From the IMG/VR virus record IMGVR_UViG_3300028410_000015: DNA of 53,646 nucleotides; one strand, given 5' to 3'. This DNA comes from a virus. The position numbers and the translations under genes are program-made. Shown one piece after another: positions 25,698 to 49,452 of the stretch (within the stretch, counting starts at the first letter, position 1; each line of letters opens with the position of its first letter). Under the pieces are notes generated by a model that made no database searches, was not told the DNA's origin, and worked only from the letters and a program-made list of their open reading frames with translations.

Positions 25698-25699
25698 TC

Positions 25700-26443: not shown

Positions 26444-26786
26444 TTTTTATTATACAGACCATGATGGTGGGTATGATCATTAATGTGTATTGACCAGAGA
26501 AAAAATGGGTCCCGAATGCTACAAGCATCAAGATGGCCAAAACAACGCTAGACATTTTGCGTGTACTGACTGGAAGCATACCAAAAGCACATACAATTTC
26601 AATGATACCCACAATCTGCATAACAGGGTCGAAATAGCCCCATTGTGCAAATTGAACTGCAAGACTCGGAAATGAGTTAAACTTGAGTGCACCCATAATT
26701 GCAAATGTAATAGAAGCGAAAAACATGCAGAACATTGCTAGTCTTTCTTTTTCCACTACATCTCCAACGATTAATTGTAACAACAT
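26412..26786 (-). CDS. small 4-TM membrane protein, DoxX-like?
   Basis: ORF track 124 aa; hydrophobic; FAQWGYFDPVMQIVGIIEIVCAFGMLP. Confidence 0.4.
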   Translation of the reverse strand: MLLQLIVGDVVEKERLAMFCMFFASITFAIMGALKFNSFPSLAVQFAQWGYFDPVMQIVGIIEIVCAFGMLPVSTRKMSSVVLAILMLVAFGTHFFSGQYTLMIIPTIMVCIIKIASFTNSEED

Positions 26787-26810
26787 GATGAAGGATTTAC
26801 AATAAACTTT

Positions 26811-28622
26811 TCACTTTCTTGACGAAATCATCTGTTTTAAGACATTCCGCAAGAAAGCTTCAGACATGTTGTCTGTTGTGTTTAAGTAAGCTTCTACTTC
26901 TGCTTTGTCAAGTGCCTTTCCAAGCTCGCCACCCTTGATGCCTTGTGCCATAAGATCTTTTGCACTTGACGCAGGCGGGCTTTCTGCAAAACTAACAAAC
27001 TTACGGGCATCAGACGGGCTGAGAGAAGAAGATGGCGAATTGTTTGAAAAATCGATCACGTCCTGGCTCGAAAGCTTGTACTTCTTTCCAAACTTGATGT
27101 ATTCTTTCTTTAAGTTCACAACATTATTGATGTCAATTGAGCTTAATCGGATCAAGAAAGAAACGATGTCACCAACTGAATTCTTAAATCGCATTCTCTT
27201 CAACGTCTTCAGGGTGGCTGACGGATCATTAGCTGACAACATTGTAGCAATTTGAACCTCAATACTTCCACCTAGAGAAATTCCACTCTCAGGACCCAGA
27301 ACCCTCAGCCCAGGAAATATTTGGTCAGTTACAGAAAGTTCAACTGCCCAATCAATGTACTCTAGCGGATCTACTGCGGTGAGAATGCCCTTTACAAACT
27401 CATCTTGAATTCGGTCAGGAGACACACCCTTTAGGCCGCTCTTTGCTACCTGAGTAACAGCGTCTTCGGTCTCTTGATCAAGTCTTGATCCCATTCTCGC
27501 AGCAAATCTTATCGCTCGTAGCACACGAAGTGGATCTTCATTAAATCTTTCAATGGGATTGCCTACTGCACGAATCACTCTGTTTTTGATGTCTTCAATG
27601 CCACCTACGAGGTCAACAATTTCTTTCTCATCAATATCGTAAAAAAGTGCGTTAACTGTGAGATCTCTTCTTTTAACATCGTCTTCGATAGAGGCCCACC
27701 TAACTTCGTCAGGACGCCTACCAGATCCAATATCTTCACGGAATGTAGCGATCTCGTACTCGTTACCTTCGTCAGTCCAAACACGAACAACACCAAAGTC
27801 CTTGCCTGTTAGATCGATCTTAAAGTTGAGATTTGACAGCACTTCAATTACACGGTCGGGTGTAAGATCAGTTGCAAGGTCATAGTCCTTTGGCGTTTTG
27901 TTCAGAAGTGTATCCCTAACAGCGCCACCAACTACAAAGAGGTCGCCGTATCTTTTAATTACATTGTGGATCGCAATGAGATCTTCTGGTAGATCCATTG
28001 ACATGGGCCTTCGAATCTCTTCACTCTCTTTGATCATAGAACTCATTTTTGACTCTTTAAGATCGAGGATGTCTTGATAGTTACAATTTGCAATCTTTTG
28101 AAACCTTTCCACTGGGTGCCCAACGCCTTCGACTCCATAAAAATCAGCAGCATTTTCAAATGAACTTAAGTGATGATGCCTATCATCCCAAAAGTGAGCT
28201 TCTGATATCACTGGATGTTGTGCAAGGATCTTTTTAATCTGTGACACCTTAAAGGATTCTGTGTCATTGGTCGTTTTCAAGTATACAGCGTCAAAATTAA
28301 GACCAGCTTGATGCAAAAGTTCAGCAACTCTGTATCTAATTGCGGCATTTGAGTTCGGCCTCCCAGTCATTAACACACAGAGAATGTTAGGATCAGCAAT
28401 TGATTGCTTAGCCAAAGCAACAATCTCAGTATTCCACCAATCCTTACTCGGAACTTCAGGAACACAAGGCTCAGATAAAGAAGCTGGGTAAGTCCACCAG
28501 CGACCAGGACCTTTATGTGCAGGCCAATCTGTTGGGTAAGTTGGACTTCCGAAAAGTGTTCCATCGAAGTCAAAAACATGAAGTATTAGTGTCATCTTGG
28601 TATCTCTGTAATTGATCCGCAA
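26811..28622 (-). CDS. fusion of an N-terminal HAD-like phosphatase (DxDGT) to a class-II CCA-adding tRNA nucleotidyltransferase
   Basis: N-terminus LHVFDFDGTLFGSPT (HAD motif I). The middle region GDLFVVGGAVRDTLLNKTPKDYDLATD...TFREDIGSGRRPD...DLTVNALFYD is the polymerase-beta head domain of CCA-adding enzymes and poly(A) polymerases. Confidence 0.75.
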   Translation of the reverse strand: MRINYRDTKMTLILHVFDFDGTLFGSPTYPTDWPAHKGPGRWWTYPASLSEPCVPEVPSKDWWNTEIVALAKQSIADPNILCVLMTGRPNSNAAIRYRVAELLHQAGLNFDAVYLKTTNDTESFKVSQIKKILAQHPVISEAHFWDDRHHHLSSFENAADFYGVEGVGHPVERFQKIANCNYQDILDLKESKMSSMIKESEEIRRPMSMDLPEDLIAIHNVIKRYGDLFVVGGAVRDTLLNKTPKDYDLATDLTPDRVIEVLSNLNFKIDLTGKDFGVVRVWTDEGNEYEIATFREDIGSGRRPDEVRWASIEDDVKRRDLTVNALFYDIDEKEIVDLVGGIEDIKNRVIRAVGNPIERFNEDPLRVLRAIRFAARMGSRLDQETEDAVTQVAKSGLKGVSPDRIQDEFVKGILTAVDPLEYIDWAVELSVTDQIFPGLRVLGPESGISLGGSIEVQIATMLSANDPSATLKTLKRMRFKNSVGDIVSFLIRLSSIDINNVVNLKKEYIKFGKKYKLSSQDVIDFSNNSPSSSLSPSDARKFVSFAESPPASSAKDLMAQGIKGGELGKALDKAEVEAYLNTTDNMSEAFLRNVLKQMISSRK

Positions 28623-29068
28623 ATATCAACAGGATCGATTGTCTCAAAGTCGCTTAATAGAAAATCATTTGAGTCTCTAGGTTTCGCGTCTAATTCTGGG
28701 TTGATTGCAATTGTAACGTGAGGAAAGTTAGGTCCCTTCATCGGGACTGGAAAGTTTGACGTATCAACAAAAGCCGTGATTATTTTATCATTTCGAGCGA
28801 TCTTAGTTACTTTCAAACACTCATCGGCGCCGAGCCACCTAGGAGGAGTTCTAAAACTCTTTCCCTGCTCAACGGGAGAAATGATGGTCATATGATGGCT
28901 ATTAACTTTCCATCCTTGCGGCGCGAGAGACGCTAATTTGCTTTGAGAATCTTCGTCTAGAACAAATGCTGTATAGTAGATCGACTTATCAGGGTTTAAG
29001 GTCATTTCCCTCAATAGTGCTCTTACTACTTCTCTAACTAAACTAGACATTAATCTAACCCTAGGCAA
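28592..29068 (-). CDS. 2H-phosphoesterase-like protein (two HxTx motifs: HHMTI, HVTIA); candidate 2',3'-cyclic phosphodiesterase
   Basis: ORF track 158 aa. The two H-x-T-x tetrapeptides are about 60 residues apart. Confidence 0.5.
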   Translation of the reverse strand: MPRVRLMSSLVREVVRALLREMTLNPDKSIYYTAFVLDEDSQSKLASLAPQGWKVNSHHMTIISPVEQGKSFRTPPRWLGADECLKVTKIARNDKIITAFVDTSNFPVPMKGPNFPHVTIAINPELDAKPRDSNDFLLSDFETIDPVDICGSITEIPR

Positions 29069-29679
29069 AAATGAACTCTTTCTCTAGCCCGATCTATTGC
29101 AGCTGATTTGCACGAAGAGCCTAAGTCATAAACAGCTATGTGATCTTCGATGCCTATAATGTGACCATACTCATGGCACAAAATACCAAAAGCGTCAGGT
29201 TGTACCGCGGCGATCATTAGATTTGCTTCTTCACAGTATGTATTTTCTTCTGTGACTTCTCTATTAAATTTTTCATAATTCTCTGTAATGAAAATCCAAA
29301 ACTCAGTTGAAGAGTAAATTCTGATCGTACCTCTCCAAGGTTGTGCGTCAGCGATTCGTGTCCACTTTTCGCCAGAGCCTGAATGGCCAGTTATTACTTG
29401 ATTGTCAACAGCTCGAACTTCTACACGTCCAAACCCATCTCTGATATGGTTTAGATGACTGCGGTCTAAACCGTTGGGAAGATAAAACTCAATGTCTGAC
29501 ATACTCACTGAGAACCAGTCTTCAAAATCAGAAACAATGGAGACTTCTACGACATTGAGTGCTCTTGTTCCGGGTTGTTGAAGCGAGAAGATATACATGC
29601 ACATCACAATAGCGACACAGATTGTTGTAGCCTTGAGGACCCTAGTAGAATGTGCATTTTTTCTACGTATCTTTGTCAT
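29050..29679 (-). CDS. secreted or membrane-anchored metzincin-like zinc metallopeptidase (HEYGHIIGIEDH = HExxHxxGxxH)
   Basis: ORF track 209 aa with an N-terminal hydrophobic segment. Confidence 0.6.
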   Translation of the reverse strand: MTKIRRKNAHSTRVLKATTICVAIVMCMYIFSLQQPGTRALNVVEVSIVSDFEDWFSVSMSDIEFYLPNGLDRSHLNHIRDGFGRVEVRAVDNQVITGHSGSGEKWTRIADAQPWRGTIRIYSSTEFWIFITENYEKFNREVTEENTYCEEANLMIAAVQPDAFGILCHEYGHIIGIEDHIAVYDLGSSCKSAAIDRARERVHFCLGLD

Positions 29680-36863: not shown

Positions 36864-37316
36864 TCACTCAACCCCAGACGTTGTGATTACTTTTGCAATG
36901 ACAATATTTCTCAGGTATTTTCCGTCTATAATACCTGAGTTAGCGCTGACAAGTCGAGCAAAAGAGTAGGTAGCGACGATTGGATTTGAAATTAATGTGC
37001 TAGGCACCGCTGGGGGCATCCGTGGCCCCCGGTTCCACCACGGCAAAAATACTGCTGTTAAGATACCCCAACTAAACGCAGCTGACTTGTTGATGTCGAC
37101 AATATAATCCGATCTCGATTTGTTACGCTCTTTTATAGTGTAATAACTTGCTGTGTTTGCATAGTAAATTAAGTCTCCGACGAAAATACCAATTGCATTC
37201 GAGTGCTCTGGATCTTGATTAGTCTTCACATCACTCCATGTTTGAATGTCGTCGTCTGGAAATATAACTCTGCGCTTAAAACCGATAAATTCGACGTTTG
37301 CAGTCTTTGAACTCAT
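36864..37316 (-). CDS. paralogue family member (VGDLIYYAN...WGILTAVF)
   Basis: ORF track 150 aa. Confidence 0.45.
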   Translation of the reverse strand: MSSKTANVEFIGFKRRVIFPDDDIQTWSDVKTNQDPEHSNAIGIFVGDLIYYANTASYYTIKERNKSRSDYIVDINKSAAFSWGILTAVFLPWWNRGPRMPPAVPSTLISNPIVATYSFARLVSANSGIIDGKYLRNIVIAKVITTSGVE

Positions 37317-37768
37317 GATCTACTCTGCGGTACATGTGTCTTGATCAGCATATTGCCAAGCCTTTTAATGCTTTTTTTGCCGGTGACACTGTTGACAAAG
37401 ATAATATGTTTGTGCTGTTTGTCCTGCGTGATCAGGTCAGTGAGCCTGCTGTTCCGAACAATTACACTGTGGACAATTCCCCAAGTTAGGACGGCTGAAT
37501 CTAGACCATGGTAGATGAAGTCACGAAACCCGATGAACTCGATCATGTCTCCCACAAAAATCCGAGGGAAATTATCATCACCAGGACATGACCCACCGCG
37601 TATTAAGTCGTCGAACTGTTTTTCGCTGCGAGTAAGCACAGTAAACTGATCCTTTTTCCAAAGTTCTGGCGCAATCACATGTGCAACGAAAGAGTCAGTC
37701 AGCATTCCGTATCCTGTCCTAAAGCTTGAGAAGGTGTAAAGTGTACTCCTACAATCATTATATTGCAA
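37313..37768 (-). CDS. paralogue family member (VGDMIEFIGF...WGIVHSVI)
   Basis: ORF track 151 aa with a 4-nt overlap onto the next gene. Confidence 0.45.
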   Translation of the reverse strand: MQYNDCRSTLYTFSSFRTGYGMLTDSFVAHVIAPELWKKDQFTVLTRSEKQFDDLIRGGSCPGDDNFPRIFVGDMIEFIGFRDFIYHGLDSAVLTWGIVHSVIVRNSRLTDLITQDKQHKHIIFVNSVTGKKSIKRLGNMLIKTHVPQSRS

Positions 37769-37889
37769 AAGTAAAAAGTGTTCAAATTTTTCTCGAAGAA
37801 ATTTTTTGAGTTAAGCTCTAATGGAAAGTCGACTTGCGCAGAAAAAAGCCAAAGCCAAAGTGATTCAAAAAATTCTGTGCTGTGTGAGG

Positions 37890-38075
37890 GGGTCAGGGTC
37901 CCCACCACGCGCCCAGCAGCCCCCAGTGAGGTGGTATAGGCCCTGGAGCGCCCCTACCCTTTCGCAGGGCGCCCTTAAGCATATAGATGGCCCCGCCCCC
38001 CAGGGCCCTATTGTACTGCGCAGAGGGGGCGGGGCCCAGGGCCCTTGCAGAGGGCCCTAGCGCCCTAGCCTAGCG
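37890..38075. repeat. GC-rich (about 70%) palindromic island with perfect 12-bp inverted repeats GGCCCCGCCCCC/GGGGGCGGGGCC and repeated AGGGCCC/CCCTAGC motifs
   Basis: Seen directly in sequence, at the boundary between the paralogue operon and the cassette array. The surrounding DNA is under 40% GC. Confidence 0.6.
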
Positions 38076-38282
38076 ATGCCAATCTGTTGCTGCTGCGTGC
38101 GCATCTAGAAATTCTGTTTCTACCCAGGTCGCGCCGCCATCTACAGACATAACGAACGCGCCGTCTGATGCGCCTGCAACAAGTTCGCCTGCTTCTGTCT
38201 GCATCGTGTACAGGACATCGCCCGTAGATACCATCTTAAGCTGCACGCCGTTCATAAGACCATCGAGTTCTGTTGGTTTCAT
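38070..38282 (-). CDS. hypothetical small protein (first gene of the cassette array)
   Basis: ORF track 70 aa. The conserved promoter module lies upstream at about 38330-38395, with a 5'UTR hairpin GCAAGAGGC/GCCTCTTG. Confidence 0.45.
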   Translation of the reverse strand: MKPTELDGLMNGVQLKMVSTGDVLYTMQTEAGELVAGASDGAFVMSVDGGATWVETEFLDAHAAATDWHR

Positions 38283-38470
38283 GGGCAGAACCGTTCCATA
38301 TTGCTGTTACCCTTCTTTTGTGCAAGAGGCGACTTGCCTCTTGTAAGTATATTATACCACTTGCTGCAGCTTTTTGCACTACACTGGCAAAAGAATGCCA
38401 GTTGCTTTTTGCAGTTGCCAGTGCTTCATGCTTCATTGGCAGCTCGTATTCGCAGACATCGCCATCAAGG

Positions 38471-38863
38471 TCAGTGCCCTACAAGTGCGTCAATCTCCTT
38501 CCACTTTGGCATGCCAGTGATGTCCTGGTTGTGTCTACTGGTTTCGCCGATCGGCTGGACCAGACCCTTGCAGCCTTCCTCAGTCAGTCGAATCCCGTGG
38601 ACCCAAAGGTATGCACCGGCCCAACGCCATCCGTCTTCGTACCTCTTTTCAGCAGAGCATCGCTCATTAGGTCCGTCCCACATGAAGTTGTCATTCCAAG
38701 CCGTCGCCAATTCCCAGATTCGCTTGTGGTTGGGACTGATGCCTGATTGTGCGTACAAGGCAGCTCGGCTCTCACGCCCTCGACGAGTCACCTCACTACT
38801 GTCTGACATACATGATGTCCAGTCGTGTCTGCGGACGGCTTTCGCGTATGCTTGAATATCCAT
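38471..38863 (-). CDS. hypothetical protein
   Basis: ORF track 130 aa. Conserved promoter module at 38870-38930. Confidence 0.45.
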   Translation of the reverse strand: MDIQAYAKAVRRHDWTSCMSDSSEVTRRGRESRAALYAQSGISPNHKRIWELATAWNDNFMWDGPNERCSAEKRYEDGWRWAGAYLWVHGIRLTEEGCKGLVQPIGETSRHNQDITGMPKWKEIDALVGH

Positions 38864-38932
38864 GATGTTCCTTCCTTGGTTCTTGCCTCTTGTAAGTACA
38901 TTATACCACTTGCAGTGGCTTTTTGCACACGA

Positions 38933-39961
38933 TCACAGACCGAATGTCAGATCATCCAGGTAGTTGAAGAACCACTTTCGTGCTGCACCCTGGACGGTCG
39001 CCGTCACTTCACCCTTTTCAAGCTCGCTACACTCGATCGTGTCAGTCTCTTCCTTCAACACGTCCTTGACAACCCATCCTAGGAACTTACCAGTAGACTT
39101 GCGATCGAGTGGTGCCTTCATCATCTGTAGTGCTTCGATGCCTTGGTTGAGACGCGCTTCAGTCACAACTGCTGCAGTGAAGTCCTCAATCGCAGCCAAA
39201 CGTTCAGGTGCGACAGGAATCTTCTCACGTGTCTTGGACACCTTATGCTTCTCACCCTTGGTCTTGAACCAGACGTCTGACAACTCCCAACCTGGTGTGA
39301 CGCATGTCCAGACAACTCCTTCACCTACACCCTTGTGTCCTAGTGCTGCAGCGATTGGGCATTCACGCTCAACACTGTCAGTCACGTGTGAGAGTTCGTC
39401 CACAGACAACTTAGGATCGTTGAAGTTGATGGAGGTCGTGAATGTCTCGAAGTGATTGACGTTCAGGAATCGTGGGTCTTCACTTGTGACATCACTCATG
39501 TCCTCAGCACTCATCCAAGTGCAAGTCTCTTCTTCACCTGGGTTTACGCAGTCGAGAACAGCGAATAGTACGAACACCTTCTCATGTTGATTGATTGCAA
39601 CACCCTTCTGAATGCCCTTTCCACACCATTCTCCGAAGTAGGTTCGCACTACATCTGGGTCATCATGAGGTACAGCCCAATCCAGATTGGATTGTGACAT
39701 AAGACCTGCAAACTGACAATTGTCGTTCCCTACTGTCAGTTCGCGAGTACGACTCTGAAACTTGATGGGCTGGCCTCGCTGTACTACAACACCTACGTTT
39801 GTCCCATGCAGCTTTACAGTGCCACGGAACTTGAGTGTTGGAATCGGCTTTGTGTCGTCATACAGCGGTACGTCTTGTTCGTCACAACCTGTGTATGTTG
39901 CCCGAAGACGGACTGTGTTGACAGCATTTCGAAACTGATTGATGGATGGAAACTTGTTCAT
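38933..39961 (-). CDS. Rnl2-like ATP-dependent RNA ligase (nucleotidyltransferase motif I KLHGTN)
   Basis: FRGTVKLHGTNVGVV resembles T4 Rnl2 motif I (KIHGTN). Downstream there are EGVVW-type motif IV and WFKTKGEKHK motif V candidates. ATG at 39959-39961. Confidence 0.6.
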   Translation of the reverse strand: MNKFPSINQFRNAVNTVRLRATYTGCDEQDVPLYDDTKPIPTLKFRGTVKLHGTNVGVVVQRGQPIKFQSRTRELTVGNDNCQFAGLMSQSNLDWAVPHDDPDVVRTYFGEWCGKGIQKGVAINQHEKVFVLFAVLDCVNPGEEETCTWMSAEDMSDVTSEDPRFLNVNHFETFTTSINFNDPKLSVDELSHVTDSVERECPIAAALGHKGVGEGVVWTCVTPGWELSDVWFKTKGEKHKVSKTREKIPVAPERLAAIEDFTAAVVTEARLNQGIEALQMMKAPLDRKSTGKFLGWVVKDVLKEETDTIECSELEKGEVTATVQGAARKWFFNYLDDLTFGL

Positions 39962-39971
39962 CTGTTGTATC

Positions 39972-40172
39972 TCACTTTCTGACGTTACATGATGCCTGAT
40001 GAAAGGAACATAACATGGTCGAGATCACGTGAGCTCTTGTAAAAACTTGGTTCACCACCGTACTGTGGAATTGAGTACACTTCGTAGTCACCAGTGGATA
40101 GGTTTTGGTAGATTTCCAGGCCGGCTCGCCGATGACGTCTTCGGGTACAATGAATTGGTACTTGTTCATGTC
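39972..40172 (-). CDS. hypothetical small protein (MDMNKYQFIVPEDVIGEPAW...)
   Basis: True start is the MDM ATG behind SD AAGGAAGGAACAAC. Paralogue of an untracked 43-aa ORF at about 40636-40766 (MSSVPNRRTHQFITTEECIGEPVFY...). Confidence 0.45.
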   Translation of the reverse strand, partial: DMNKYQFIVPEDVIGEPAWKSTKTYPLVTTKCTQFHSTVVNQVFTRAHVISTMLCSFHQASCNVRK

Positions 40173-40821
40173 CATGTTGTTCCTTCCTTGTTTATGTGCA
40201 ACCTTGTTTATGTGCAACCTTGTTTATGTGTAAGAGTTCTTGCCTCTTGTAAGTACATTATACCACTTGCAGCGGCTTTTTGCACTCGACATGAATGTTA
40301 TTGCAGGTACAACAACAAAAGCATCCAGAGAGTTCTTCTGATACACACTACATGGTTGCTGAATGTCAGGTCAGGACTTGTTCTTTCGTTTCTCTTCTCG
40401 TGCCTCTTGAATCGCAGTTGTTAGTTCATCGAGAAGCTCCTCTGCCAGCTCGAGAGACAACACCCAATCGAGCACCTCAATCACACCCACTTCAGAATCA
40501 TAAGTCACTCCTGGCACCATGTCGCCACTCCTCATTCGTGTGTCTTGTTATACGATGCCAGGGCACCAACTACCGTTTTACTGCTAGACGCACGACGCAC
40601 GAAGTCGAGGTTGCAGGTTGTATCTCACTTTCTGACGTTACATGATGTCTGACGCTAGGAACTCTGCATATTCCAGTTCACGTGCACTCTTGTAAAAAAC
40701 CGGCTCACCAATGCACTCTTCTGTTGTGATGAACTGGTGTGTTCGCCTGTTTGGTACTGATGACATGATGATTCCTTCCTTGGTTCTTGTCTATTATATC
40801 ATCTGCTGCTGGTTTTTGCAC

Positions 40822-41151
40822 TTACTTCTTACGAGTTCGCTCACAAAGCGCCAACACGCAGGCTCGCTGCCTCTCACAAATCTCAGTCAACGTCTCGTCA
40901 CTCTGCCAATGCGGTGTGTTGAGCTTCAGTCGCTTCAAGTTGACGAGCCTGCTGACCTCAGGAATAAGCTTGTTACCAAAAGTGTAGACTTCTTCATGCG
41001 TCATCTCTTTGTTCGGGTCGAAGTGGTCGCGTGCCTCTTTTGCAAGCACATCAATTTGTGCCTGGACATCGTCTAAGTTGATGCTGTCCCGTTCACGATC
41101 AAGGTCGTCCTGCGAGAGATTGAGGTCAAAGGGGTTTCGGTAGTAGCTCAT
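40822..41151 (-). CDS. hypothetical protein
   Basis: ORF track 109 aa. Promoter module at 41160-41210. Confidence 0.45.
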   Translation of the reverse strand: MSYYRNPFDLNLSQDDLDRERDSINLDDVQAQIDVLAKEARDHFDPNKEMTHEEVYTFGNKLIPEVSRLVNLKRLKLNTPHWQSDETLTEICERQRACVLALCERTRKK

Positions 41152-41298
41152 GTCTTCCTCCTTTCTAGTATATTATACCACAGGTGTCTGGTTTTTGCAC
41201 CTTCCTGCTAGATCCTCCTCAGCTTCTACCATCCTCTCCCAGCCATCTGAGGTGACATCACCGATATCACGACGAGTGCGACGACTCATGCCACCTCC

Positions 41299-41784
41299 TC
41301 ACTTCTTCCGATTGTCAACGTGGAGCTCAGTCTCGATGAAGCTGGACTTCAACTTGTTACAATCAATCACGAGGACCGCGACAGTGTTGCTCGACTCGTA
41401 ATCCCACAGCAAGGTCTCAAAGTACATGCTGACCAAACAGTCCTCACCGAGGCGCTTCACGATCTTGTCAATCATGTGCATCGAGATTCCCTTGCCGTCC
41501 TCCATCACCTTCACGACACAGCGGAAGCCATCTCCGTCTTTGAGGTCCAGCTCGAGGCTCTTGTCAATGCCGGTCCGACCACTGTGATGCTTGGGCAACT
41601 TATTGATGTACTTGTTAGGGGCATCACATACTGTCTCGGTGTCTCGGATGACGTAGCCGTCCTTGAACCGGAGCTTGTTGATTGCCTCGACCACCTTGCC
41701 AGCCTTGACGTACTTTGAACCGAAGGTCTCGAGGGTGCCGTCTGCGTCGAGGGTCTCGAAGGAGGTGTGAATCAAATCGGTCAT
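41299..41784 (-). CDS. hypothetical protein (start MTDLIHTSF; the track extension is a GTG reading through the promoter/UTR)
   Basis: ATG at 41782-41784. The 5'UTR carries the hairpin GCAAGAGGC-TT-GCCTCTTC. Confidence 0.45.
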   Translation of the reverse strand: MTDLIHTSFETLDADGTLETFGSKYVKAGKVVEAINKLRFKDGYVIRDTETVCDAPNKYINKLPKHHSGRTGIDKSLELDLKDGDGFRCVVKVMEDGKGISMHMIDKIVKRLGEDCLVSMYFETLLWDYESSNTVAVLVIDCNKLKSSFIETELHVDNRKK

Positions 41785-42103
41785 GTTATTGCCTATGATG
41801 TGTAAGGCTGGTTGATTCCCTCCTTGATGCAAGAGGCTTGCCTCTTCCACTTTGTTATTATACCCTATTCAGTCGACTTTTGCACTAGCTGTCGAACATT
41901 TTCTGTGCTGGACAACGGTCTGCGCTGCCTTAACTTCTGAGACAGTTTCTGAACTGTTGATGGGTTTCCTATCAGGTCGAGCATCAAAAGCTGCTCTAAG
42001 CTACTTCTGGGTACTTTTTGGCAGCCACAGTAATGAGCTGCTCACCACCTTGGAGTAGGCAAATGAGTAGCTTGAACTGTACAGGTTTTGGCCTGTCGTT
42101 AAT

Positions 42104-42394
42104 TCACTTGAAAGTGATAATCGAGCAAGGCTTGCCGTCGTCGCGATGCTCATCGTCAATGCACACGGTGAAGCGACGAGTGTAGGACATGGACTCAAGA
42201 GCCTCATGAATTTCAGAGATTGACTCCAGGTCATCTCCCGAAATGCCGTCCACAACAATGGAATCAACCACACCGATACGCAGACGAACAAAGACATCCG
42301 TTGCGCCGTGCTTCCGTGCTGCGTTTCCAATTGCAGCCAGCGCACCGTCTTCAGCGTGAGAGATGGCGAAGCGGTATGACTTAAAGTCGTTCAT
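42104..42394 (-). CDS. hypothetical protein (start MNDFKSYRF)
   Basis: ATG at 42392-42394 behind SD AAGGAAGGAAATAC. The track extension translates the conserved promoter (QKASASGIMILQGRK). Confidence 0.45.
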   Translation of the reverse strand: MNDFKSYRFAISHAEDGALAAIGNAARKHGATDVFVRLRIGVVDSIVVDGISGDDLESISEIHEALESMSYTRRFTVCIDDEHRDDGKPCSIITFK

Positions 42395-42494
42395 GTATTT
42401 CCTTCCTTGTAATATCATTATACCACTTGCAGACGCTTTTTGCACTTAACATGAATGTTATTGCAGGTGCACCTTCAAAAGCCCACAGTCATGG

Positions 42495-42716
42495 CTACAG
42501 AACAATCTTCAGTGCACCCTGTAGGATGTCGTCAGCCTCTGTAGAGTCGTCAGACCTGATGGCCCGAAGTACTGCAACAGACATATCATCTAGCCTCATG
42601 CGCAGTCGTACAGAACACTCATCTGTCCTGATGAAGTGTCCGGAGTCGTGCATCACACACCAGCAGTACACACACTGTCCCTCTTCCCACTTGTGTTCGA
42701 ATCGTGTGTCAGCCAT
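42495..42716 (-). CDS. hypothetical Cys/His-rich small protein (MADTRFEHKWEEGQCVYCWCVMHDSGHF)
   Basis: ATG at 42714-42716 with SD AAGGAGGG. TGATG overlap with the upstream gene. Confidence 0.45.
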   Translation of the reverse strand: MADTRFEHKWEEGQCVYCWCVMHDSGHFIRTDECSVRLRMRLDDMSVAVLRAIRSDDSTEADDILQGALKIVL

Positions 42717-42937
42717 CACCGCCCTCCTTGCGCGAACTCTGCAGCTGCCTTTGCACGCCTGACACACTCTTCAACAGCATCTTCAAGGCACCAGACACTG
42801 AATGTCAGGGTGATTCCCATTACTGTGAAGGGCTTTGCTGCAGCATATGCCTCTGCTTCGTCTGTATACACCTCATCAAACGAGTAGATGCTTGGGTCGT
42901 TTGTGAGAACAACGAAAACTTCATATGAACGTAGCAT
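42716..42937 (-). CDS. hypothetical small protein (MLRSYEVFVV...)
   Basis: ATG at 42935-42937 with SD AAGGAAGGAGCTAC. Promoter module at 42950-42990. Confidence 0.45.
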   Translation of the reverse strand: MLRSYEVFVVLTNDPSIYSFDEVYTDEAEAYAAAKPFTVMGITLTFSVWCLEDAVEECVRRAKAAAEFAQGGR

Positions 42938-43070
42938 GTAGCTCCTTCCTTGTAAGTCTATTATACCATAACAGACAGGAAATTGCACATCATGTAAGTC
43001 GCAACCACAATTGCTGCCAAAGACATAAATGATACGATGTTGACTATTTTCCTGAGCATTGCGACCTCAC

Positions 43071-43253
43071 TCACAGGCTCAACGTGCTTGCCTTCACACG
43101 CTTGTAACGCTCAGCGCGGAGGTGAGACAGATTGGCTTGAGCGACTCGCATCTTGCGACAGTCAAGGCTCCCACCTGCAGTCAAGACCTTGACGGTTGCC
43201 TCATATCTTGCAATGATGGTCTCGAGCTCTTCGTTGGTCTTGTTTTCGAACAT
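43071..43253 (-). CDS. hypothetical small protein
   Basis: ORF track 60 aa. Promoter module at 43300-43345. Confidence 0.35.
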   Translation of the reverse strand: MFENKTNEELETIIARYEATVKVLTAGGSLDCRKMRVAQANLSHLRAERYKRVKASTLSL

Positions 43254-43351
43254 GCGGGATGCCTCTGAATGAGTGATGCTTTGAAGCGGTAACCGTTACC
43301 TCTTCTCTACTTATGTATTATACCCTACCCGCACACTTTTTGCACTTACTT

Positions 43352-43549
43352 TTACTGCAAATCTCTCAATAGCTCTGCGAGTTGTTGTTGACTACCACCC
43401 AACTTGCCGAACGCATTATGTGCACTATAGATGATGAACGCAATGTCTTCTAGGAGATTGTCGTGTGTGAGCTCGCCCACTGTCATCCCAATTAGCGAGA
43501 GCTCTCGCAACGCAGGTTTGACATCAATCTTCTCTTGTTTGTCTTTCAC
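43352..43549 (-). CDS. hypothetical small protein
   Basis: ORF track 65 aa. Third gene of the three-gene cassette. Confidence 0.35.
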   Translation of the reverse strand: MKDKQEKIDVKPALRELSLIGMTVGELTHDNLLEDIAFIIYSAHNAFGKLGGSQQQLAELLRDLQ

Positions 43550-43603
43550 ATTGTCTCCAGTGTTTCATGTGAGCACATCCACGCCCAGCACTCTGTAAGT
43601 AGC

Positions 43604-43936
43604 TTACTGATCGACATGTTTCATGTGCTTCTGCTTGGCAAACCACACCTGCCCTTCTGAGTCGATTACTTCCATACACATGCCAACCTCTCTATGTCCC
43701 TTTGTCGCTCTAACTCGAGCTCGCTTCACAATGAACAGCTCGCCGAGTGCTACTGGCTTGTACTTTGTCTCTGGAGGGAGTATCGTCTCACCTGCAGATG
43801 TCATACCTTTTGATGCATCTGATTTGAACCAGGAGTCAATCTCACTACTTGTCAAAGGACGCCAGATGGGTATCAGACGAGCATTCACAAGCATTTCCTC
43901 GTTTACAACGACGATGTCACCCTTCTTGAACGACAT
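43604..43936 (-). CDS. hypothetical protein
   Basis: ORF track 110 aa. TGATG overlap with 43936..44184. Confidence 0.45.
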   Translation of the reverse strand: MSFKKGDIVVVNEEMLVNARLIPIWRPLTSSEIDSWFKSDASKGMTSAGETILPPETKYKPVALGELFIVKRARVRATKGHREVGMCMEVIDSEGQVWFAKQKHMKHVDQ

Positions 43937-44184
43937 CAGACTACACCGTCGTTGTACTCAGGAGACTCAGGAGTGATGACTTTCTCGACTCGCTTCACCT
44001 TGAACTTGGCTCCGATTGTGGGACCACCCGCTGTGTTATACACCCAAGGTCGATTGTAGTGATCAGCATCCTGAACCTTCCAGCAGTCGAACTGTGAGCT
44101 GTACGAACCCAGCATGACGACCGGTCCGTCGGGGCCGAGGCAGTGAAGCCAGTAGAGTCCTGCAGTAAGTCTGTTCGTATCCAT
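43936..44184 (-). CDS. hypothetical protein
   Basis: ORF track 82 aa. ATG at 44182-44184, SD TTCCTTCC at 44190-44197, promoter module at 44204-44236. Confidence 0.45.
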   Translation of the reverse strand: MDTNRLTAGLYWLHCLGPDGPVVMLGSYSSQFDCWKVQDADHYNRPWVYNTAGGPTIGAKFKVKRVEKVITPESPEYNDGVV

Positions 44185-44236
44185 GTTGTTTCCTTCCTTG
44201 TAAGTCTATTATACCACTTGCAGCACGTTTTTGCAC
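44185..44236 (-). promoter_or_regulatory. representative copy of the conserved cassette promoter/5'UTR module (minus-strand reading GTGCAAAAACG..TGGTATAATAGAC..AAGGAAGGAAACAAC ATG)
   Basis: Extended -10 TGGTATAAT, upstream conserved GTGCAAAAA, SD AAGGAAGG. About 30 near-identical copies between 38.3 and 53.0 kb. Confidence 0.6.
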
Positions 44237-44460
44237 CTGCTGCTGCACAACCAAGGCAAACAATTGCTCAGCACGCTGCCCTGGATTCTGGAGCTGTTAC
44301 GAATCTTCGGATGGGTTTCCTATCATCTAGCAGTACGAAATGTATCAGAAGTTGCTTCTGGGCTGCTTTTTGTCGCCAGGGTGGTGAGCAGATCCCCATT
44401 CTGATGTGTTACTTTTGCCCAAAATGAGCCTGCCTGATTGTTGCTGGTTTTGCCAACAAA

Positions 44461-44490
44461 AATGGGAGGCCGAAGCCTCCCCAAAGTCCT
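44461..44490 (-). terminator. rho-independent terminator (GGGAGGC-TTCG-GCCTCCC, then ATTTTTGTTGG on the minus strand)
   Basis: Directly downstream of the 44502..44855 stop. Confidence 0.55.
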
Positions 44491-44501
44491 ATCTAACCGG
44501 C

Positions 44502-44855
44502 TTACTCGCCGCGCTCTGCAACCACCTCTGCCTCGATGAGCGAGGCATCAGCCGCCTGGAGCTTGGCCCAGGTCTTGGCACGGAACACCATGCCGTAAGT
44601 GATGGCAGGAACGCGGTCGCCAACGTCCTCATCTGTGTGAGCGGGGAAGGTCACCGCGCACATGTAGGTGTCAGTCTTCTCGTACACGGCGCAGAGGCGG
44701 ATGGACGAACCCTCGGGGATGTGAACCCACTTTCCAGCAAACTCCTCGTGAGCGTTCAGTGCGGTCTCAGTGCCAGGAATGAAGAAGAGGGCGTTGCCCT
44801 CGGAGGTGCGGGCACGAGTAGAAGCGGCGAGAGTGAAGGTGTTAACGTTGGTCAT
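44502..44855 (-). CDS. hypothetical protein, duplicated cassette gene (paralogue of 47784..48092, about 75% identical)
   Basis: MTNVNTFTLAASTRARTSEGNALFFIPGTETALNAHEEF... against MTNVNTLALTATTRVRTSEGNAFFFIPGTETALTAHEDY.... Confidence 0.5.
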   Translation of the reverse strand: MTNVNTFTLAASTRARTSEGNALFFIPGTETALNAHEEFAGKWVHIPEGSSIRLCAVYEKTDTYMCAVTFPAHTDEDVGDRVPAITYGMVFRAKTWAKLQAADASLIEAEVVAERGE

Positions 44856-45273
44856 GATTGGTACCTCTTTCTTGATTGGTCGTAAGGGTGAGGGTGATTC
44901 CTTCCTTACTTTGTTATTATACTCTATTCTGAAACTTTTTGCACTAGCATCTGAAATTAATTCAGGCTGTACCTACCATGAACATCCAGTATCCAAGGGT
45001 CAAAGTACTAGCAGCCACTGCACGCAAAATACCATGATTTTTAAGAGCAACGTCGACGGTACTCAGTGTCCATGCCGACTTCTTATGTGCTGCGTGCCTG
45101 GTGATGAGATTGACGAGCCACGCGCCGGTGAGCATGTACATGATGATCCAAAAGCCGATGTAGTGTATGATGATTCCTTACTTGTAGTAGTATTAAATGA
45201 TTGGGTTATTCCTAACCATCCGATTATACCATAGGTGGGGGTGATTTACACCACCCCCGCACGATTCTTTCAA

Positions 45274-45519
45274 TCAATTCCAACAACCATCAATTTTTTC
45301 CCAACGACGTTCGGCGAAGTGTGTCTCGTCGAGAGTCGTAGTATCAATGGCATAGTGAAGGAATCGAAGGTCATTTCCGGACCACATATCTTGTCCGTTC
45401 TCATCGTCTGTCATCTCTTCCCACTTTTTGGTGGACTCTTCCTTCGTGTGGAAAAGGTACTTCTCGTAGACTTCACCGTAGTTGATATCAATGACCAGTA
45501 CAATGTAAATCACGTTCAC
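45274..45519 (-). CDS. hypothetical small protein (GTG start)
   Basis: ORF track 81 aa with SD AAGAAAGAGGT. A variant promoter module lies upstream. Confidence 0.4.
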   Translation of the reverse strand: MNVIYIVLVIDINYGEVYEKYLFHTKEESTKKWEEMTDDENGQDMWSGNDLRFLHYAIDTTTLDETHFAERRWEKIDGCWN

Positions 45520-45615
45520 CTCTTTCTTGAGTGGTTGTAGAGGTTAGGTTGATTCCCTCTCTACTTATGTATTATGCTACATGTGGAGGTAATTTACACT
45601 GGACGGCAGAACGGC

Positions 45616-45903
45616 CTACAGCCACTCGTAAAGCGTCTCAGGCGGGAACTCCTCAACGCGCGACGATGTGCCCGAGACGGGATCCATAAAGATTCGCTCC
45701 GTCTGAGTTACTTCACCGCTGTGGAGCTTGACGAACTCTTCAAAGTTGTCGTAGAAGACGCCCGCGCACAGCCATCGACCGCCATGCTTTTCAAACTTGT
45801 CAATGCGTGGAGGCATGTGGTGAGGAGACTTAACAAAAACCCTGAGCCAGCGACGCTCGCCATCACGATCAGTAGCAAGAATGATAGGGTTGAGAATAGC
45901 CAT
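45616..45903 (-). CDS. hypothetical protein
   Basis: ORF track 95 aa with SD AAAGAGGTGATTAC and a promoter module at 45930-45985. Confidence 0.45.
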   Translation of the reverse strand: MAILNPIILATDRDGERRWLRVFVKSPHHMPPRIDKFEKHGGRWLCAGVFYDNFEEFVKLHSGEVTQTERIFMDPVSGTSSRVEEFPPETLYEWL

Positions 45904-45987
45904 GTAATCACCTCTTTGTGAGAGGAAGTTGATTCCTTCCTCTCTCTGTTATTATATCATTCACAGCAGCTTTTTGCACTTGCTGTT

Positions 45988-46239
45988 TTACTTAGGAGGC
46001 GTGCATACCCAACCGGCCTGCTCCAAGATGAAGGCGAGAACGCGATGAGGCACAGTGTGATATAGGCTGCTCTTCTGTCCCGTGTGTCCCCATGTGTACT
46101 CACACTCGACCTCAACCTCACCGGCGCGACTCTTTTCACACGAGATCTTCAAGTTCCGCTCGCTGGTAGAAGTGATGAATCGACTAAATTCGTGCTCGGT
46201 GGTGAGGGTCCAGCTTTCGGGTAGCTCTTGAGTGGTCAT
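45988..46239 (-). CDS. hypothetical protein
   Basis: ORF track 83 aa with SD AAGGAAGGAGGAAACAT and a promoter module at 46250-46295. Confidence 0.45.
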   Translation of the reverse strand: MTTQELPESWTLTTEHEFSRFITSTSERNLKISCEKSRAGEVEVECEYTWGHTGQKSSLYHTVPHRVLAFILEQAGWVCTPPK

Positions 46240-46357
46240 ATGTTTCCTCCTTCCTTGTAAGTCTATTATACTCTACCCACACGCTTTTTGCACCTGTCAA
46301 ACAAAAAACCCCACCACAGCATTGCTGAGTCAGGGCTGAAGTGGGTTGTACCAGTGC

Positions 46358-46639
46358 TTACTTGTAGTTACTGTCGAGTTCGATGTCTCCTGCGAGGATA
46401 AGCACAAGGCGTTCAACGTCTAGACCAGCCTCTTCCATTGCGAGTGCCCACGACATACCTTCGCCGCCTGGGCCGAATGCCTTGCCAGCTAGTGCCTGAC
46501 GAATGACGCCCTTGATTCGCGCTCGCTTCTTGTCTGCAAATGACGACGCTGTGTCGTCTGTTGAATTCCAACCTGCTTCTGACATATTTTCTAACTCTTC
46601 CCTGATGATTCTTTGTAGATGAGCTTGCCTGATCTTCAT
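46358..46639 (-). CDS. hypothetical protein with IIREEL leader (MKIRQAHLQRIIREELENMSE)
   Basis: True start ATG at 46637-46639 with SD CAGGAGACAC. The track ORF extends upstream through the UTR. Confidence 0.5.
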   Translation of the reverse strand: MKIRQAHLQRIIREELENMSEAGWNSTDDTASSFADKKRARIKGVIRQALAGKAFGPGGEGMSWALAMEEAGLDVERLVLILAGDIELDSNYK

Positions 46640-46757
46640 GATGTGTCTCCTGTGTTGCAACACGAGTCTACATATGTTCCACACAGACACTTTGTATCTC
46701 TTTGTACTACTTGCAGACGTTTTTTGCACTTGACATGAATGGAAACTCACGTCACTG

Positions 46758-47081
46758 TCAAGAATCCTCCTTGAGCTTCTTGAGCCACTTCTTGGACTTG
46801 TAGAAGACCAGGTCACCTAGTTGTGCTTCGGTGCCGCCATGACGGAAGAAGAGGTCGAGTGCGACGAGCATGACATCGACTGCTTCCTCTCGAACATCGT
46901 GATCCAGATTTGCCTGACTCTTGGTAGCGTCGCCTGAGGCTGATTTGTTGATTGCACTGGATGCGAGGAGGACTGCCTGTGCGACTTCGCCTGTCTCTTC
47001 TGTGAGTTTGGCGAGGATTTCGAGGGTTGAAGACTTACCTCTGAAACGATGGCTGATTACGTTGATGCCTGTAACTTCCAT
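46758..47081 (-). CDS. MazG-like all-alpha NTP pyrophosphohydrolase
   Basis: EETGEVAQAV...DVREEAVDVMLVAL matches the EExxE/ExxD metal-binding helices of MazG/HisE-type enzymes. Preceded by an untracked 32-aa TM micropeptide ORF at about 47087-47185. Confidence 0.45.
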   Translation of the reverse strand: MEVTGINVISHRFRGKSSTLEILAKLTEETGEVAQAVLLASSAINKSASGDATKSQANLDHDVREEAVDVMLVALDLFFRHGGTEAQLGDLVFYKSKKWLKKLKEDS

Positions 47082-47727
47082 GATGACTCCTTACGAGACT
47101 GTGACGAGGATGAAGACAGTGACCATCGTGAGCAGGCTCATGGTGACCAGGGTGAGCCGGTTGCTTTTACGAAGTTGAAAGTCGCTCATGTGTTACCTCT
47201 TGTTGGTTCCTGTCTATTGTATCACTTGCAGCACGTTTTTGCACATGCCAACCGCCTCAGCCACAAATAGCCGCAAGGGGTTCAAAGTACATGTCACCCT
47301 CGACGTAGGACTTGCCTACAGCGTACTCACCAGAACCTTGCCCGTATTCTCTTCTCGTTTCGAGATATAGTGATTCGAGAAATTCGGCGCGCGTGGGCTT
47401 CCGTGCTTTCTTGAGTAGCTTCGCGCGAGCGTCTTAAGTCGTTTCGTTGCTCATGTTTCCTTCCTTGTAATAGTATTATACTCTACCCACGTGTTTTTTG
47501 CACTTAACACTGGCAATAATAGTGATGCCTTTCGAAGCACGCTGCCCTGGATTCTGGAGCTGTTACGAGCCTTCGGATGAGTTTCCTATCATCTAACCTT
47601 CTGAAATGAATCAGGAGAGGCTTCTGCAGCAAAATTGCTTGCCACAATGGGGAGCAGATCCTATCTTCTGCAGCCAAAAATAGGTTGATCTCGACCTGCT
47701 GGTTTCAAGATGGATTGCCGGCTGCTG

Positions 47728-47760
47728 GTTCGACAAAAAAAGGGCGGCTTGCGCCGCCCT
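47728..47760 (-). terminator. rho-independent terminator (GGGCGGC-GCAA-GCCGCCC followed by TTTTTTT on the minus strand)
   Basis: Downstream of the 47784..48092 stop. Confidence 0.55.
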
Positions 47761-47783
47761 CGAGCACCGAGTGCTCATGCCAC

Positions 47784-48092
47784 TCAGGCAGCGTTGAGCT
47801 TGTCCCAGGTCTTCTGACGGAAGACCATGCCAACGGTCATCGAGGGGATACGATCTCCAACCTCGTCGTCGACATGAGCCGGGAATGTTACGGCGCACAT
47901 GTAGGTATCAGTCTTCTCGTAGACAGCACACAGCTTGATCTCCGTGCCTTCCGGAAGATGAAGCCACTTGCCCGAGTAGTCCTCGTGAGCAGTCAAGGCC
48001 GTCTCGGTTCCAGGAATGAAGAAGAACGCGTTGCCCTCAGAGGTTCGGACGCGGGTGGTAGCAGTGAGAGCGAGAGTGTTGACGTTGGTCAT
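47784..48092 (-). CDS. hypothetical protein, duplicated cassette gene (paralogue of 44502..44855)
   Basis: See 44502..44855. The flanking promoter and the downstream about 70-bp element are duplicated too. Confidence 0.5.
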   Translation of the reverse strand: MTNVNTLALTATTRVRTSEGNAFFFIPGTETALTAHEDYSGKWLHLPEGTEIKLCAVYEKTDTYMCAVTFPAHVDDEVGDRIPSMTVGMVFRQKTWDKLNAA

Positions 48093-48236
48093 ATGAGGTA
48101 CCTCTTTCTGGTTGGGATGTAAGGTTGGTTGATTCCTTCCTTACTTTGTTATTATACTCTATTCTGACGCTTTTTGCACATGCCTCTGAATTTTATTTCG
48201 TGTCCTTGAAGTCGTTTTCGTACACGTACTCATGGT

Positions 48237-48419
48237 CTACATGAACCACAGCAGCAACCATGAAGCGACAGCGATGTCAGAGACGGACCAAACTACGACT
48301 GCTGGGTACTCCTCGGGCTTGTACATGTCCATTTCGGCTGTCCGTCTGTCGGTTGCTGGCAATGACAACAGCCACTTGCTGTAGTCGTCGTCGTCGTCTT
48401 TGAGGAGTAACTTGTACAT
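48237..48419 (-). CDS. hypothetical small protein (acidic N-terminus, hydrophobic C-terminus)
   Basis: ORF track 60 aa, adjacent to 48420..48725. Confidence 0.35.
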   Translation of the reverse strand: MYKLLLKDDDDDYSKWLLSLPATDRRTAEMDMYKPEEYPAVVVWSVSDIAVASWLLLWFM

Positions 48420-48725
48420 TCAGAACCTGTTTCTAGAGGGTGTTGCATGGAGATCATCGTTCGTCGAGTTCATGGCGTTCTCCTTAGCTTCCTCAGCGCG
48501 AGCCTCGGATGCAGCAATCAAAAGGAGCCTGCTAATAGCTTCTGCAGCGAATGCGTCCATCGTGATCGTCTTCGACACCACGTTGTTCAAGCTTAAAGTC
48601 TCCACGTATTCGAGTTCAATCCTATTGTCTTCATTGTTGCTGACGACGTAGCGACCCCCGAAGTGGTCGCCGAAGAACTCGCTGGCGATCTGGCGAGAAG
48701 TTTTAACCCACATAGGTACTGACAT
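48420..48725 (-). CDS. hypothetical protein
   Basis: ORF track 101 aa with SD AAGGAAGGAATCATT and a promoter module at 48745-48790. Confidence 0.45.
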   Translation of the reverse strand: MSVPMWVKTSRQIASEFFGDHFGGRYVVSNNEDNRIELEYVETLSLNNVVSKTITMDAFAAEAISRLLLIAASEARAEEAKENAMNSTNDDLHATPSRNRF

Positions 48726-48781
48726 AATGATTCCTTCCTTGGTTCTAATAGTATTTTATCATGTGCAGAAGATTTTTGCAC

Positions 48782-49105
48782 TTACCTGCGCTTGTCGCGA
48801 TCAGTGACCTCAGTGACATCACCTTGGTTTTCACTATATGCCACGTAGAACTCGCCACCCGAGCCTTCGGTCTTGTACTCGCCGTTGGTGTCTGAGGTGT
48901 ACAACTCGATCTCAATGTGCCACCAATCTTCGTTGCAGTCGTCGTCTACCTTTGCGTCGTCGATCGTTTTGCGGAAGTCTGCAAAACACTGGCGCGCAGC
49001 GAACTCTTTCATGAACATGCGCTCTTCGCGTCCTGCAGTATCTTCATCATTGTATTCGTTGCCACACGTAAAGTTGACGCGGTAGAGGTCGAAGCTGATT
49101 GCCAT
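48782..49105 (-). CDS. hypothetical acidic protein
   Basis: ORF track 107 aa. ATG at 49103-49105, SD at 49112-49121, -10 at 49131-49137, conserved TTTGCAC at 49153-49160. Confidence 0.45.
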   Translation of the reverse strand: MAISFDLYRVNFTCGNEYNDEDTAGREERMFMKEFAARQCFADFRKTIDDAKVDDDCNEDWWHIEIELYTSDTNGEYKTEGSGGEFYVAYSENQGDVTEVTDRDKRR

Positions 49106-49167
49106 GATGTTTCCTTCCTTGGTTCTTGTCTATTATATCATCTGCTGCAGCAATTTGCACCAGACGA

Positions 49168-49452
49168 TCACCAGATCTGAAGGTGACACCCTCGCCACGA
49201 CTCACAGCACGCCTGGCCTTCGACCTGCTTCTCAAACACTGAGACTGCTGTGAATCCGAATGCATTCACGGTATCATAAGGGCACCACATGCCCCAGTTG
49301 GCCTCCAGGTTAATATCCGTGTAACCTTGGCTCTCGAGCTGTGAAACGGTCTCATCTCGGTGACCATTACGCTGGGAAACTGAGCATGAGAAGGTCACTG
49401 CTGTAATGATGATGATGCCTGTAATGATGCTAGCAAACTTCAGAATGTCCAT
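49168..49452 (-). CDS. small secreted protein or lipoprotein candidate (N-terminal signal MDILKFASIITGIIIITAVTFSC)
   Basis: ORF track 94 aa with the promoter module upstream. Confidence 0.45.
   Translation of the reverse strand: MDILKFASIITGIIIITAVTFSCSVSQRNGHRDETVSQLESQGYTDINLEANWGMWCPYDTVNAFGFTAVSVFEKQVEGQACCESWRGCHLQIW

Follow-up and report, generated by a model that had tools for sequence, protein, structure and literature searches.

Intrinsic (Rho-independent) terminators and 3' stabilising stem-loops end the early transcription units of phages, TE of phage T7 being one example, and replication origins of the lambda ori type combine iterons with an AT-rich segment. Here we describe a GC-rich block of 192 bp, at positions 37884..38075 of a 53,646-nucleotide stretch of viral DNA (IMG/VR record IMGVR_UViG_3300028410_000015, the whole of which is called the window below), that can be compared with both of these systems and with two further kinds of phage sequence. 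The PeSLs of T4-type phages are short, repeated composites of a promoter and a terminator (PMC2839356, PMC4122927). The injection-stop region of phage T5 borders the pre-early region as a non-coding stretch of about 1.6 kb that is rich in repeats, inverted repeats and palindromes, has paired DnaA boxes and is conserved across T5-like phages (bioRxiv 10.1101/866236). Our tentative reading, which we regard as possible although by no means assured, is that the block is a cis-acting 3' boundary element operating at the RNA level, in the form of a polymerase barrier or of a processing or stabilising structure.

The block is real and non-random. Its base counts (A30 C70 G65 T27) correspond to 70.3% GC in a window that averages 44.1%, and among the 100-bp GC peaks of the window it ranks first (0.71, versus 0.64 for the tRNA cluster). 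With the tRNA cluster set aside, it is the sole non-coding sequence among the extreme GC peaks examined, which suggests selection for structure. A reading of the window made from its letters alone (the sequence-only reading) had described an intergenic island of about 70% GC here and was right to do so, but the background of under 40% GC that it gave was wrong: the module to the left of the block has 40.6% GC and the module to the right 49.5%. That reading also reported a perfect 12-bp inverted repeat, and this is indeed present (GGCCCCGCCCCC at 37989-38000 and GGGGGCGGGGCC at 38025-38036, with a 24-nucleotide spacer). When the block was shuffled 1000 times with its dinucleotides preserved, only 4 of the shuffled sequences had a perfect inverted repeat of at least 12 bp. 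The repeated palindromic units that it mentioned exist as well: AGGGCCCT occurs at 38002, 38038 and 38051, a number equalled in 2 of 1000 shuffles, and all four GGGCCC sites of the window fall inside the block. Avoidance of GGGCCC elsewhere in the genome is not significant (Markov model: 0 observed, 2.3 expected).

The three exact copies of AGGGCCCT are irregularly spaced, by 36 and 13 bp, and the 36-nucleotide spacing concerns an 11-nucleotide motif only. Like AGGGCGCCCT and CTGCGCAG, they are zero-spacer palindromes; zero-spacer 8-mer palindromes are only modestly enriched overall, at a level reached in 53 of 2000 shuffles. Tandem Repeats Finder reported AAAGCC in 2.7 copies and a tandem pair of GCCCTAGC and nothing else. 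At the 5' edge of the block on the minus strand, three CTAG sequences within 16 nucleotides (38057..38073) form the densest CTAG cluster of the window and place TAG in all three minus-strand frames. G-quadruplex motifs can be found in the block only if loops of up to 12 nucleotides are admitted, and C runs compete with them; complementarity between the block and the rest of the window is limited to chance matches of 10-12 nucleotides.

The window belongs to a metagenome contig of 77.5 kb (ENA ERZ27315555 k141_234856), and its sequence recurs in Logan assemblies of SRR6185438 and partly in the JGI sample 3300039191. The block is identical in the ENA contig (MEGAHIT) and in the Logan contig that crosses the junction. 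In another sample, a JGI contig runs from the right module through 160 bp of the block and ends within it at 37911. The block is therefore no assembly artefact. That JGI contig, Ga0399990_035696 (3300039191), differs by a single-nucleotide polymorphism, T to G on the plus strand, at 37927, a position that is unpaired in both predicted folds.

The setting of the block is that of a boundary, and the module junction proposed by the sequence-only reading has been borne out. On the right lies an array in which one promoter recurs at least 23 times, each time ahead of a small ORFan gene (38351-52594, minus strand, 49.5% GC), and which continues past the end of the window in contig L020. On the minus strand this promoter reads GTGCAAAAA-N13-TGGTATAAT and is followed by a strong ribosome-binding site, AAGGAAGGA. 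The last copy of the promoter (38351..38379, minus strand) drives an open reading frame (ORF) of 70 amino acids (38070..38282, minus strand), the last cassette gene of the array, which contains the Asp-box-like sequence SVDGGATW and is confined to this phage, where it was seen on four contigs. The stop codon of this ORF (38072-38070) is the first stop of the CTAG cluster, and the block begins 0-10 nucleotides past it. All called genes lie on the minus strand, across 63 kb of genome, and the block starts at a stop codon; we therefore take the block to be transcribed from the promoter at 38351-38379.

On the left, the block is followed by an A/T-rich spacer (37706..37883, minus strand, 34.8% GC) with T6 runs at 37871-37866 and 37846-37841 and a 10-bp A/T inverted repeat (37800-37809 and 37865-37874). 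The segment directly beside the block, 37760-37880, has 32.2% GC and also houses the next promoter, a sigma-70-like TTGAAC-17-TATAAT (37757..37785, minus strand, 10 of 12 matches) that serves the downstream operon. The first gene of that operon (37313..37705, minus strand) encodes an ORFan protein of 130 amino acids. In the left region as a whole, which has a lower GC content, no more than two sites match the array promoter, both of them more loosely (29989 and 35297). An operon of coupled paralogues had been proposed on this side; the operon is present, but its first genes are only weakly paralogous.

This arrangement resembles that of the few canonical terminators in the array, which are located at 50003, 47761 and 44481. 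Those at 44481-44464 and 47761-47740 begin 4-6 nucleotides after a stop codon, and the gaps they open, of 317 and 702 nucleotides, each end at the next promoter. The gap opened by the block is 364 nucleotides long and likewise ends at the next promoter.

The minus-strand RNA of the block is predicted to form four hairpins, H1 to H4. H1 (38037..38059) begins 10 nucleotides past the stop codon, is built from two of the three AGGGCCCT copies and takes the form UAGGGCCCU-CUGCA-AGGGCCCUG, with 9 bp, a 5-nucleotide loop and a predicted stability of -15.8 kcal/mol. In H2 (37989..38036, -36.5 kcal/mol), the 12-bp repeat plus a G-U pair gives a 13-bp stem with a 22-nucleotide loop. The third AGGGCCCT palindrome (38002..38009) lies in this loop and could pair with either 38038-38045 or 38051-38058. 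H3 (37945..37976, -19.2 kcal/mol) contains the 10-nucleotide palindrome AGGGCGCCCT (37966-37975), and H4 (37884..37910, -10.3 kcal/mol) is the last G/C-rich stem before the A/T-rich spacer. All four are on the minus strand. For comparison, the canonical terminators of this phage range from -15.8 to -24.2 kcal/mol. It is because the block is positioned like the array terminators, and because its hairpins are as stable or more so, that we read it as a boundary element.

The block shares several features with intrinsic terminators. It follows a stop codon directly on the 3' side and closes a promoter-dense region of early type, and its G/C-rich hairpins, as stable as those of the phage's own terminators or more so, are followed by a spacer and a new promoter. 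However, at about 190 nucleotides it comprises four hairpins rather than one, and no U run abuts any of the stems. Whereas H1, with its 9 bp and 5-nucleotide loop, fits the short loops of 3-8 nucleotides typical of intrinsic terminators, the 12-bp repeat with its 24-nucleotide loop does not. The adjoining array consists of small ORFan genes that each have a conserved promoter of early type, as in the hyperplastic regions of T4-type phages, and the block is found at the edge of this array. However, all 23 promoter matches fall between 38351 and 52566 and none within 37884-38075, and the block exists as a single copy. With no promoter consensus and only one copy, its identification as a PeSL was rejected.

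The location, strand and composition of the block, its capacity to form hairpins and the promoters that flank it can be read directly from the DNA, and from these features we infer that transcripts may terminate, pause or be processed at the block. In the mechanism we propose, the block would form the 3' untranslated end of the transcript of the last cassette, and ribosomes would halt at the triple-frame TAG cluster before four stable G/C hairpins fold. Since TAG is present in all three frames at the 5' edge, ribosomes would stay off the structure. The hairpins together would then act as a barrier and an end structure that slows or stops RNA polymerases, which would arrive in large numbers from the array upstream, and they might also protect or define the 3' ends of the array transcripts. 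Isolated from the array, the downstream operon would depend on its own promoter for expression. Further support comes from the coincidence of the block with the end of the array and with the step in GC content from 49.5% to 40.6%, and from the lack of any coding signal in the block, whose six-frame translations are of low complexity.

Several observations weigh against this interpretation. No U run directly follows any of the hairpins, the T6 runs of the spacer being 13 and 38 nucleotides past the last stem, and for this reason the block was not called by the terminator scan. The 12-bp stem with its 24-nucleotide loop is far above the loop sizes of canonical terminators. The phage has ordinary short terminators, so that a length of 190 nucleotides at this one place lacks an explanation. 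Moreover, the minus-strand fold is no better than that of shuffled sequences (z = -0.84), whereas the plus-strand fold scores better (z = -2.19); its 11-bp helix depends on three G-U pairs. Without relatives of the block there is no evidence from covariation or conservation. Finally, perfect zero-spacer palindromes suit the recognition of double-stranded DNA equally as well as they suit RNA pairing.

A more ambitious version of the proposal, which we consider unlikely, is that the block represents an undescribed cis-acting stop signal or structured RNA that marks where the early cassette array ends in a deep-branching, tRNA-rich phage lineage equipped for RNA repair. As a stop signal, the multi-hairpin barrier would halt the host RNA polymerase, or transcription-coupled entry of the genome, until a phage factor brings about release. 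As a structured RNA, it would be derived from the 3' untranslated region and act in trans. If a barrier to transcription or entry does exist here, it would reveal the means by which a phage keeps one module, in which dozens of identical early promoters stand, insulated from the next, and it would constitute a compact and portable insulator element. At present, however, the block is a single orphan sequence, of value mainly as the landmark of a module boundary in an uncharacterised phage lineage, and we place it, as an orphan, in the broad class of intergenic boundary elements that are rich in hairpins.

The rivals to an RNA-level boundary element must be weighed against the same features. An unlikely one is a cis site acting at the DNA level, in which the palindromes bind a dimeric protein beside an easily melted A/T-rich stretch; such a site might serve as an origin of replication, as a signal for packaging or for a terminus, as a cluster of operators, or as a signal that stops injection where the early region ends. 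The three AGGGCCCT copies, AGGGCGCCCT and CTGCGCAG are all zero-spacer palindromes, a segment of 32% GC adjoins the block, and the position is at the edge of an apparent early-gene array. The T5 injection-stop region provides a precedent for a palindrome-dense, non-coding boundary (bioRxiv 10.1101/866236), and in both cases such a stretch bounds the first-expressed region of a tRNA-rich lytic phage. However, the T5 region extends over 1.6 kb with paired DnaA boxes, and this block of 190 bp is GC-rich, devoid of DnaA boxes and without relatives. There is no DnaA-box cluster, the sole DnaA-like box within 2 kb being at 38921, and the enrichment of palindromes is modest overall. Origins of the lambda type share with the block the repeated short palindromic motifs beside an A/T-rich segment, but here only three exact motif copies are present at irregular spacing, no initiator gene was identified around the block and no change of skew accompanies it. 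The GC-skew analysis that the sequence-only reading had suggested as a check was carried out, and the cumulative skew falls monotonically through the site without an inflection. Contig ends of both assemblies that cross the junction lie elsewhere (near window position 1 in both, and at 38908 in the Logan contig). No replication, terminase, integrase or nuclease domain was detected in the ORFs searched, which were most of those of at least 120 amino acids and left many small ORFs outside the search. Thus, the origin, pac/cos, recombination and nuclease-target roles raised in the sequence-only reading gained no positive support. Similarly improbable in our estimation is that the block is recently acquired foreign DNA of high GC content, or the remnant of a small mobile element at a recombination junction, with no dedicated function. 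This would account for the contrast between 70% and 44% GC, for the concentration in the block of the window's four GGGCCC sites and its densest CTAG cluster, and for a GC step exactly at this place, and the array does resemble the PeSL-bounded hyperplastic regions of T4-type phages, whose cassettes are shuffled by recombination (PMC2839356, PMC4122927). Imperfect direct repeats of 12 bp also flank the block, 210 bp apart (AATTCTGTGCTG at 37871..37882 on the plus strand and AATCTGTTGCTG at 38081-38092), but their agreement is limited to 8 of 12 ungapped positions, the right copy stands apart from the block, and the resemblance may well be due to chance. The termini of the block show a weak inverted similarity, at 16 of 25 positions. 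On these grounds, and because the block is present in a single copy, its identification as a miniature inverted-repeat transposable element or small insertion element was rejected. Neither a donor nor a second copy turned up in 63 kb of the genome, in phages, plasmids or E. coli, or in IMG/VR, GTDB genomes and JGI metagenomes, and a significant inverted repeat combined with a triple palindrome speaks for a maintained structure.

The remaining explanations are less probable still. An independent small non-coding RNA of an undescribed family, acting in trans as a protein sponge or regulator, for example, seems improbable; it might be released from the minus-strand 3' untranslated region or be transcribed as a plus-strand antisense RNA from a promoter-like site, TTGAGA-18-TACAAT (37726-37755), that points into the block. 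GC peaks in phage DNA of moderate GC content tend as a general rule to be structured RNAs, and the window's other sharp GC peak in non-coding DNA is the tRNA cluster. The better-scoring plus-strand fold and its 11-bp helix would suit such an RNA, as would the proximity of genes for RNA repair, which include an RNA ligase gene 860 nucleotides upstream, RtcB and a fusion of CCA-adding and kinase functions. However, neither z-score is strong, no relatives exist in which covariation could be sought, no Rfam family was recognised (the best, sX13, reached 20.9 bits against the 50 needed), no tRNA-like or tmRNA features are present, and there is no terminator at either end. A plus-strand gene would in addition be an exception to the minus-strand orientation of all genes in 63 kb. 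We give very little credence to an assembly chimera in which two unrelated genomes were joined through a spurious GC-rich sequence. The GC step exactly at the block and the break of the JGI contig inside it could be explained in this way, but two assemblers cross the junction identically, the right module runs into the block in the JGI sample as well (over 160 bp), the left module likewise contains a looser match to the promoter of the array (at 29989), and RNA-repair genes are found on both sides. Least probable of all, and close to negligible, is a protein-coding function, either through a plus-strand ORF or through read-through of the 70-amino-acid ORF past its TAG. Open frames do exist on both strands, as expected at 70% GC: the frame after the TAG remains open for 59 codons up to a TGA at 37895-37893, and the plus-strand ORF at 37821..38060 (79 amino acids) is genuine as an open frame. 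Its dismissal as spurious in the sequence-only reading has held up, with just two low-complexity matches and no real homolog among 1.84 billion representative proteins, and the translations are rich in Pro, Gly, Arg and Ala and of low complexity. The phage encodes a release-factor-like protein and has a tRNA-like sequence with a CUA anticodon loop, but the latter has no acceptor stem, and TAG is an ordinary stop codon that ends 11 of the 79 genes. Read-through or recoding of the TAG was rejected because it is a normal stop.

Searches for the identity or relatives of the block gave consistently negative results. When all 4227 Rfam models were run on the whole window, none matched the block at its gathering score, and relaxing the threshold to E <= 10 on 37650-38350 gave nothing credible, the best match being that of sX13 noted above (gathering score 50, E = 0.12). 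ARAGORN and the Rfam tRNA model found no tRNA, tmRNA or tRNA-like feature in the block even under relaxed settings; at a 70% threshold, ARAGORN made only meaningless calls with 'introns' of 176-202 nucleotides. A blastn search of the block, or of its 3-kb surroundings, against phages, plasmids and E. coli genomes returned one chance match of 34 nucleotides. IMG/VR was searched with five exact patterns, among which a 20-mer matched five contigs that all carry one coding sequence of 67% GC and show no similarity in the flanks, an 18-mer matched two contigs by chance, and two others matched nothing. In GTDB genomes, the inverted-repeat pattern gave 53 matches, mostly long single G/C hairpins of actinomycetes, with no similarity outside the stems. 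The strict pattern had no match in JGI metagenomes, and a looser direct-repeat pattern retrieved 97 stretches that are unrelated tandem repeats or minisatellites. At 13 IMG/VR loci with RNA ligase genes there was no GC-rich island nearby, and the single peak seen, at one of these loci (L012), is coding. Judged by these searches, the block is without relative or donor in the collections covered, and all pattern matches were chance or generic ones. A CRISPR mini-array and the repeats of a type III antitoxin (ToxI) were also considered and rejected, given that there are no tandem direct repeats of at least 23 nucleotides with a regular period.

The source of the block looks like a large lytic phage. 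No match to this phage was found by blastn among 50,697 phage records, and neither blastn nor the flanking gene nor the RNA ligase links it to T4-type or other known phages. The best homolog of the RNA ligase among 5.8 billion proteins is 46% identical, and the gene just downstream of the block (37313..37705) matches only itself in the same collection and has no tblastn match in phages or IMG/VR. These comparisons indicate that the phage is a singleton of an isolated lineage. Its nearest recognisable relatives may be two contigs, L178 and L179, of 63.7 and 129.9 kb. The genes for a phosphomannomutase and a short release factor adjoin in the phage (5654-7182) and likewise in these contigs (L178 and L179, 1-2142), with release factors that are 55% identical to that of the phage.

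Among the other contents of the genome, tRNA genes are prominent: ARAGORN called 36 and the Rfam tRNA model matched three more, all on the minus strand. An additional tRNA-like sequence at 5387-5445 (minus strand) was not called by ARAGORN and reaches 29.4 bits with the Rfam tRNA model, over model positions 8-63. Its anticodon loop, UUCUAAC, would give a CUA (amber suppressor) anticodon, and no acceptor stem forms. Domain searches assigned proteins to the major-vault-protein-like, DnaJ, NUDIX, PP2C, phosphomannomutase and release-factor-like groups. Alongside the 36-39 tRNA genes there is a tool-kit for RNA repair and translation (20623-29679 and 38933-39961, minus strand) whose members are RtcB (2.4e-129), DnaJ, an RNA ligase of the Rnl2 type, a 158-amino-acid protein that is weakly CPD-like, and a fusion of a CCA-adding enzyme with a HAD 'Swiss Army Knife' domain that has a polynucleotide-kinase-like match. 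The tRNA region also encodes a protein of 892 amino acids (13768-16446, minus strand) that matches the shoulder of the Major Vault Protein (1.4e-26) and Vault_3 repeat domains, with a weak match to SPFH/Band 7 as well.

Other features of the array deserve mention. Three neighbouring cassettes have a conserved hairpin, CAAGAGGC-N4-GCCTCTTG, between the -10 box and the start codon (38321-38345, near 38870-38894, and 40227-40250), which could be a shared element of their 5' untranslated regions. Two pairs of similar segments, each about 3.2 kb apart, indicate that cassettes were duplicated within the array: one consists of 300 nucleotides with 74% identity (44551-44850 and 47788-48087) and the other of 91 nucleotides with 87% identity (44270-44360 and 47536-47626). 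Long gaps separate some of the called array genes, at 47066-47767 (702 nucleotides) and 39962-40354 (393 nucleotides).

A by-product of this analysis, which we rate above the block in importance and which merits a study of its own, concerns the release-factor gene (7182-6504, minus strand). This gene is split into an ORF of 37 amino acids and another of 173 amino acids that meet at GGAGG-TCA-TTT-TAG-C, and a +1 shift at UUU UAG C would join both without stops. The joined protein of 225 amino acids aligns continuously with domains 2-4 of RF1 (E = 1e-35, versus 1e-21 for RF2) and has its top scores on NCBIfam RF1 models. Domain 1 is absent, the GGQ motif is kept, and PPN stands in place of the PxT of RF1; PP(N/S/T) occupies this position in members of the family. 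At least 1,747 homologs of 160-235 amino acids exist, several on phage-like contigs of 100-485 kb, and the same split was seen in all three distinct homologs inspected (five loci, L177-L181). Their shift sites are of the RF2 type, with GGAGG-N3-CUU-UGA in two of the three and CUU-UGA lacking a clear GGAGG in the third. From these sequences, there appears to be a family of short RF1-like proteins controlled by an RF2-style +1 frameshift site, in which this phage has UAG at the shift site and the three inspected homologs have UGA.

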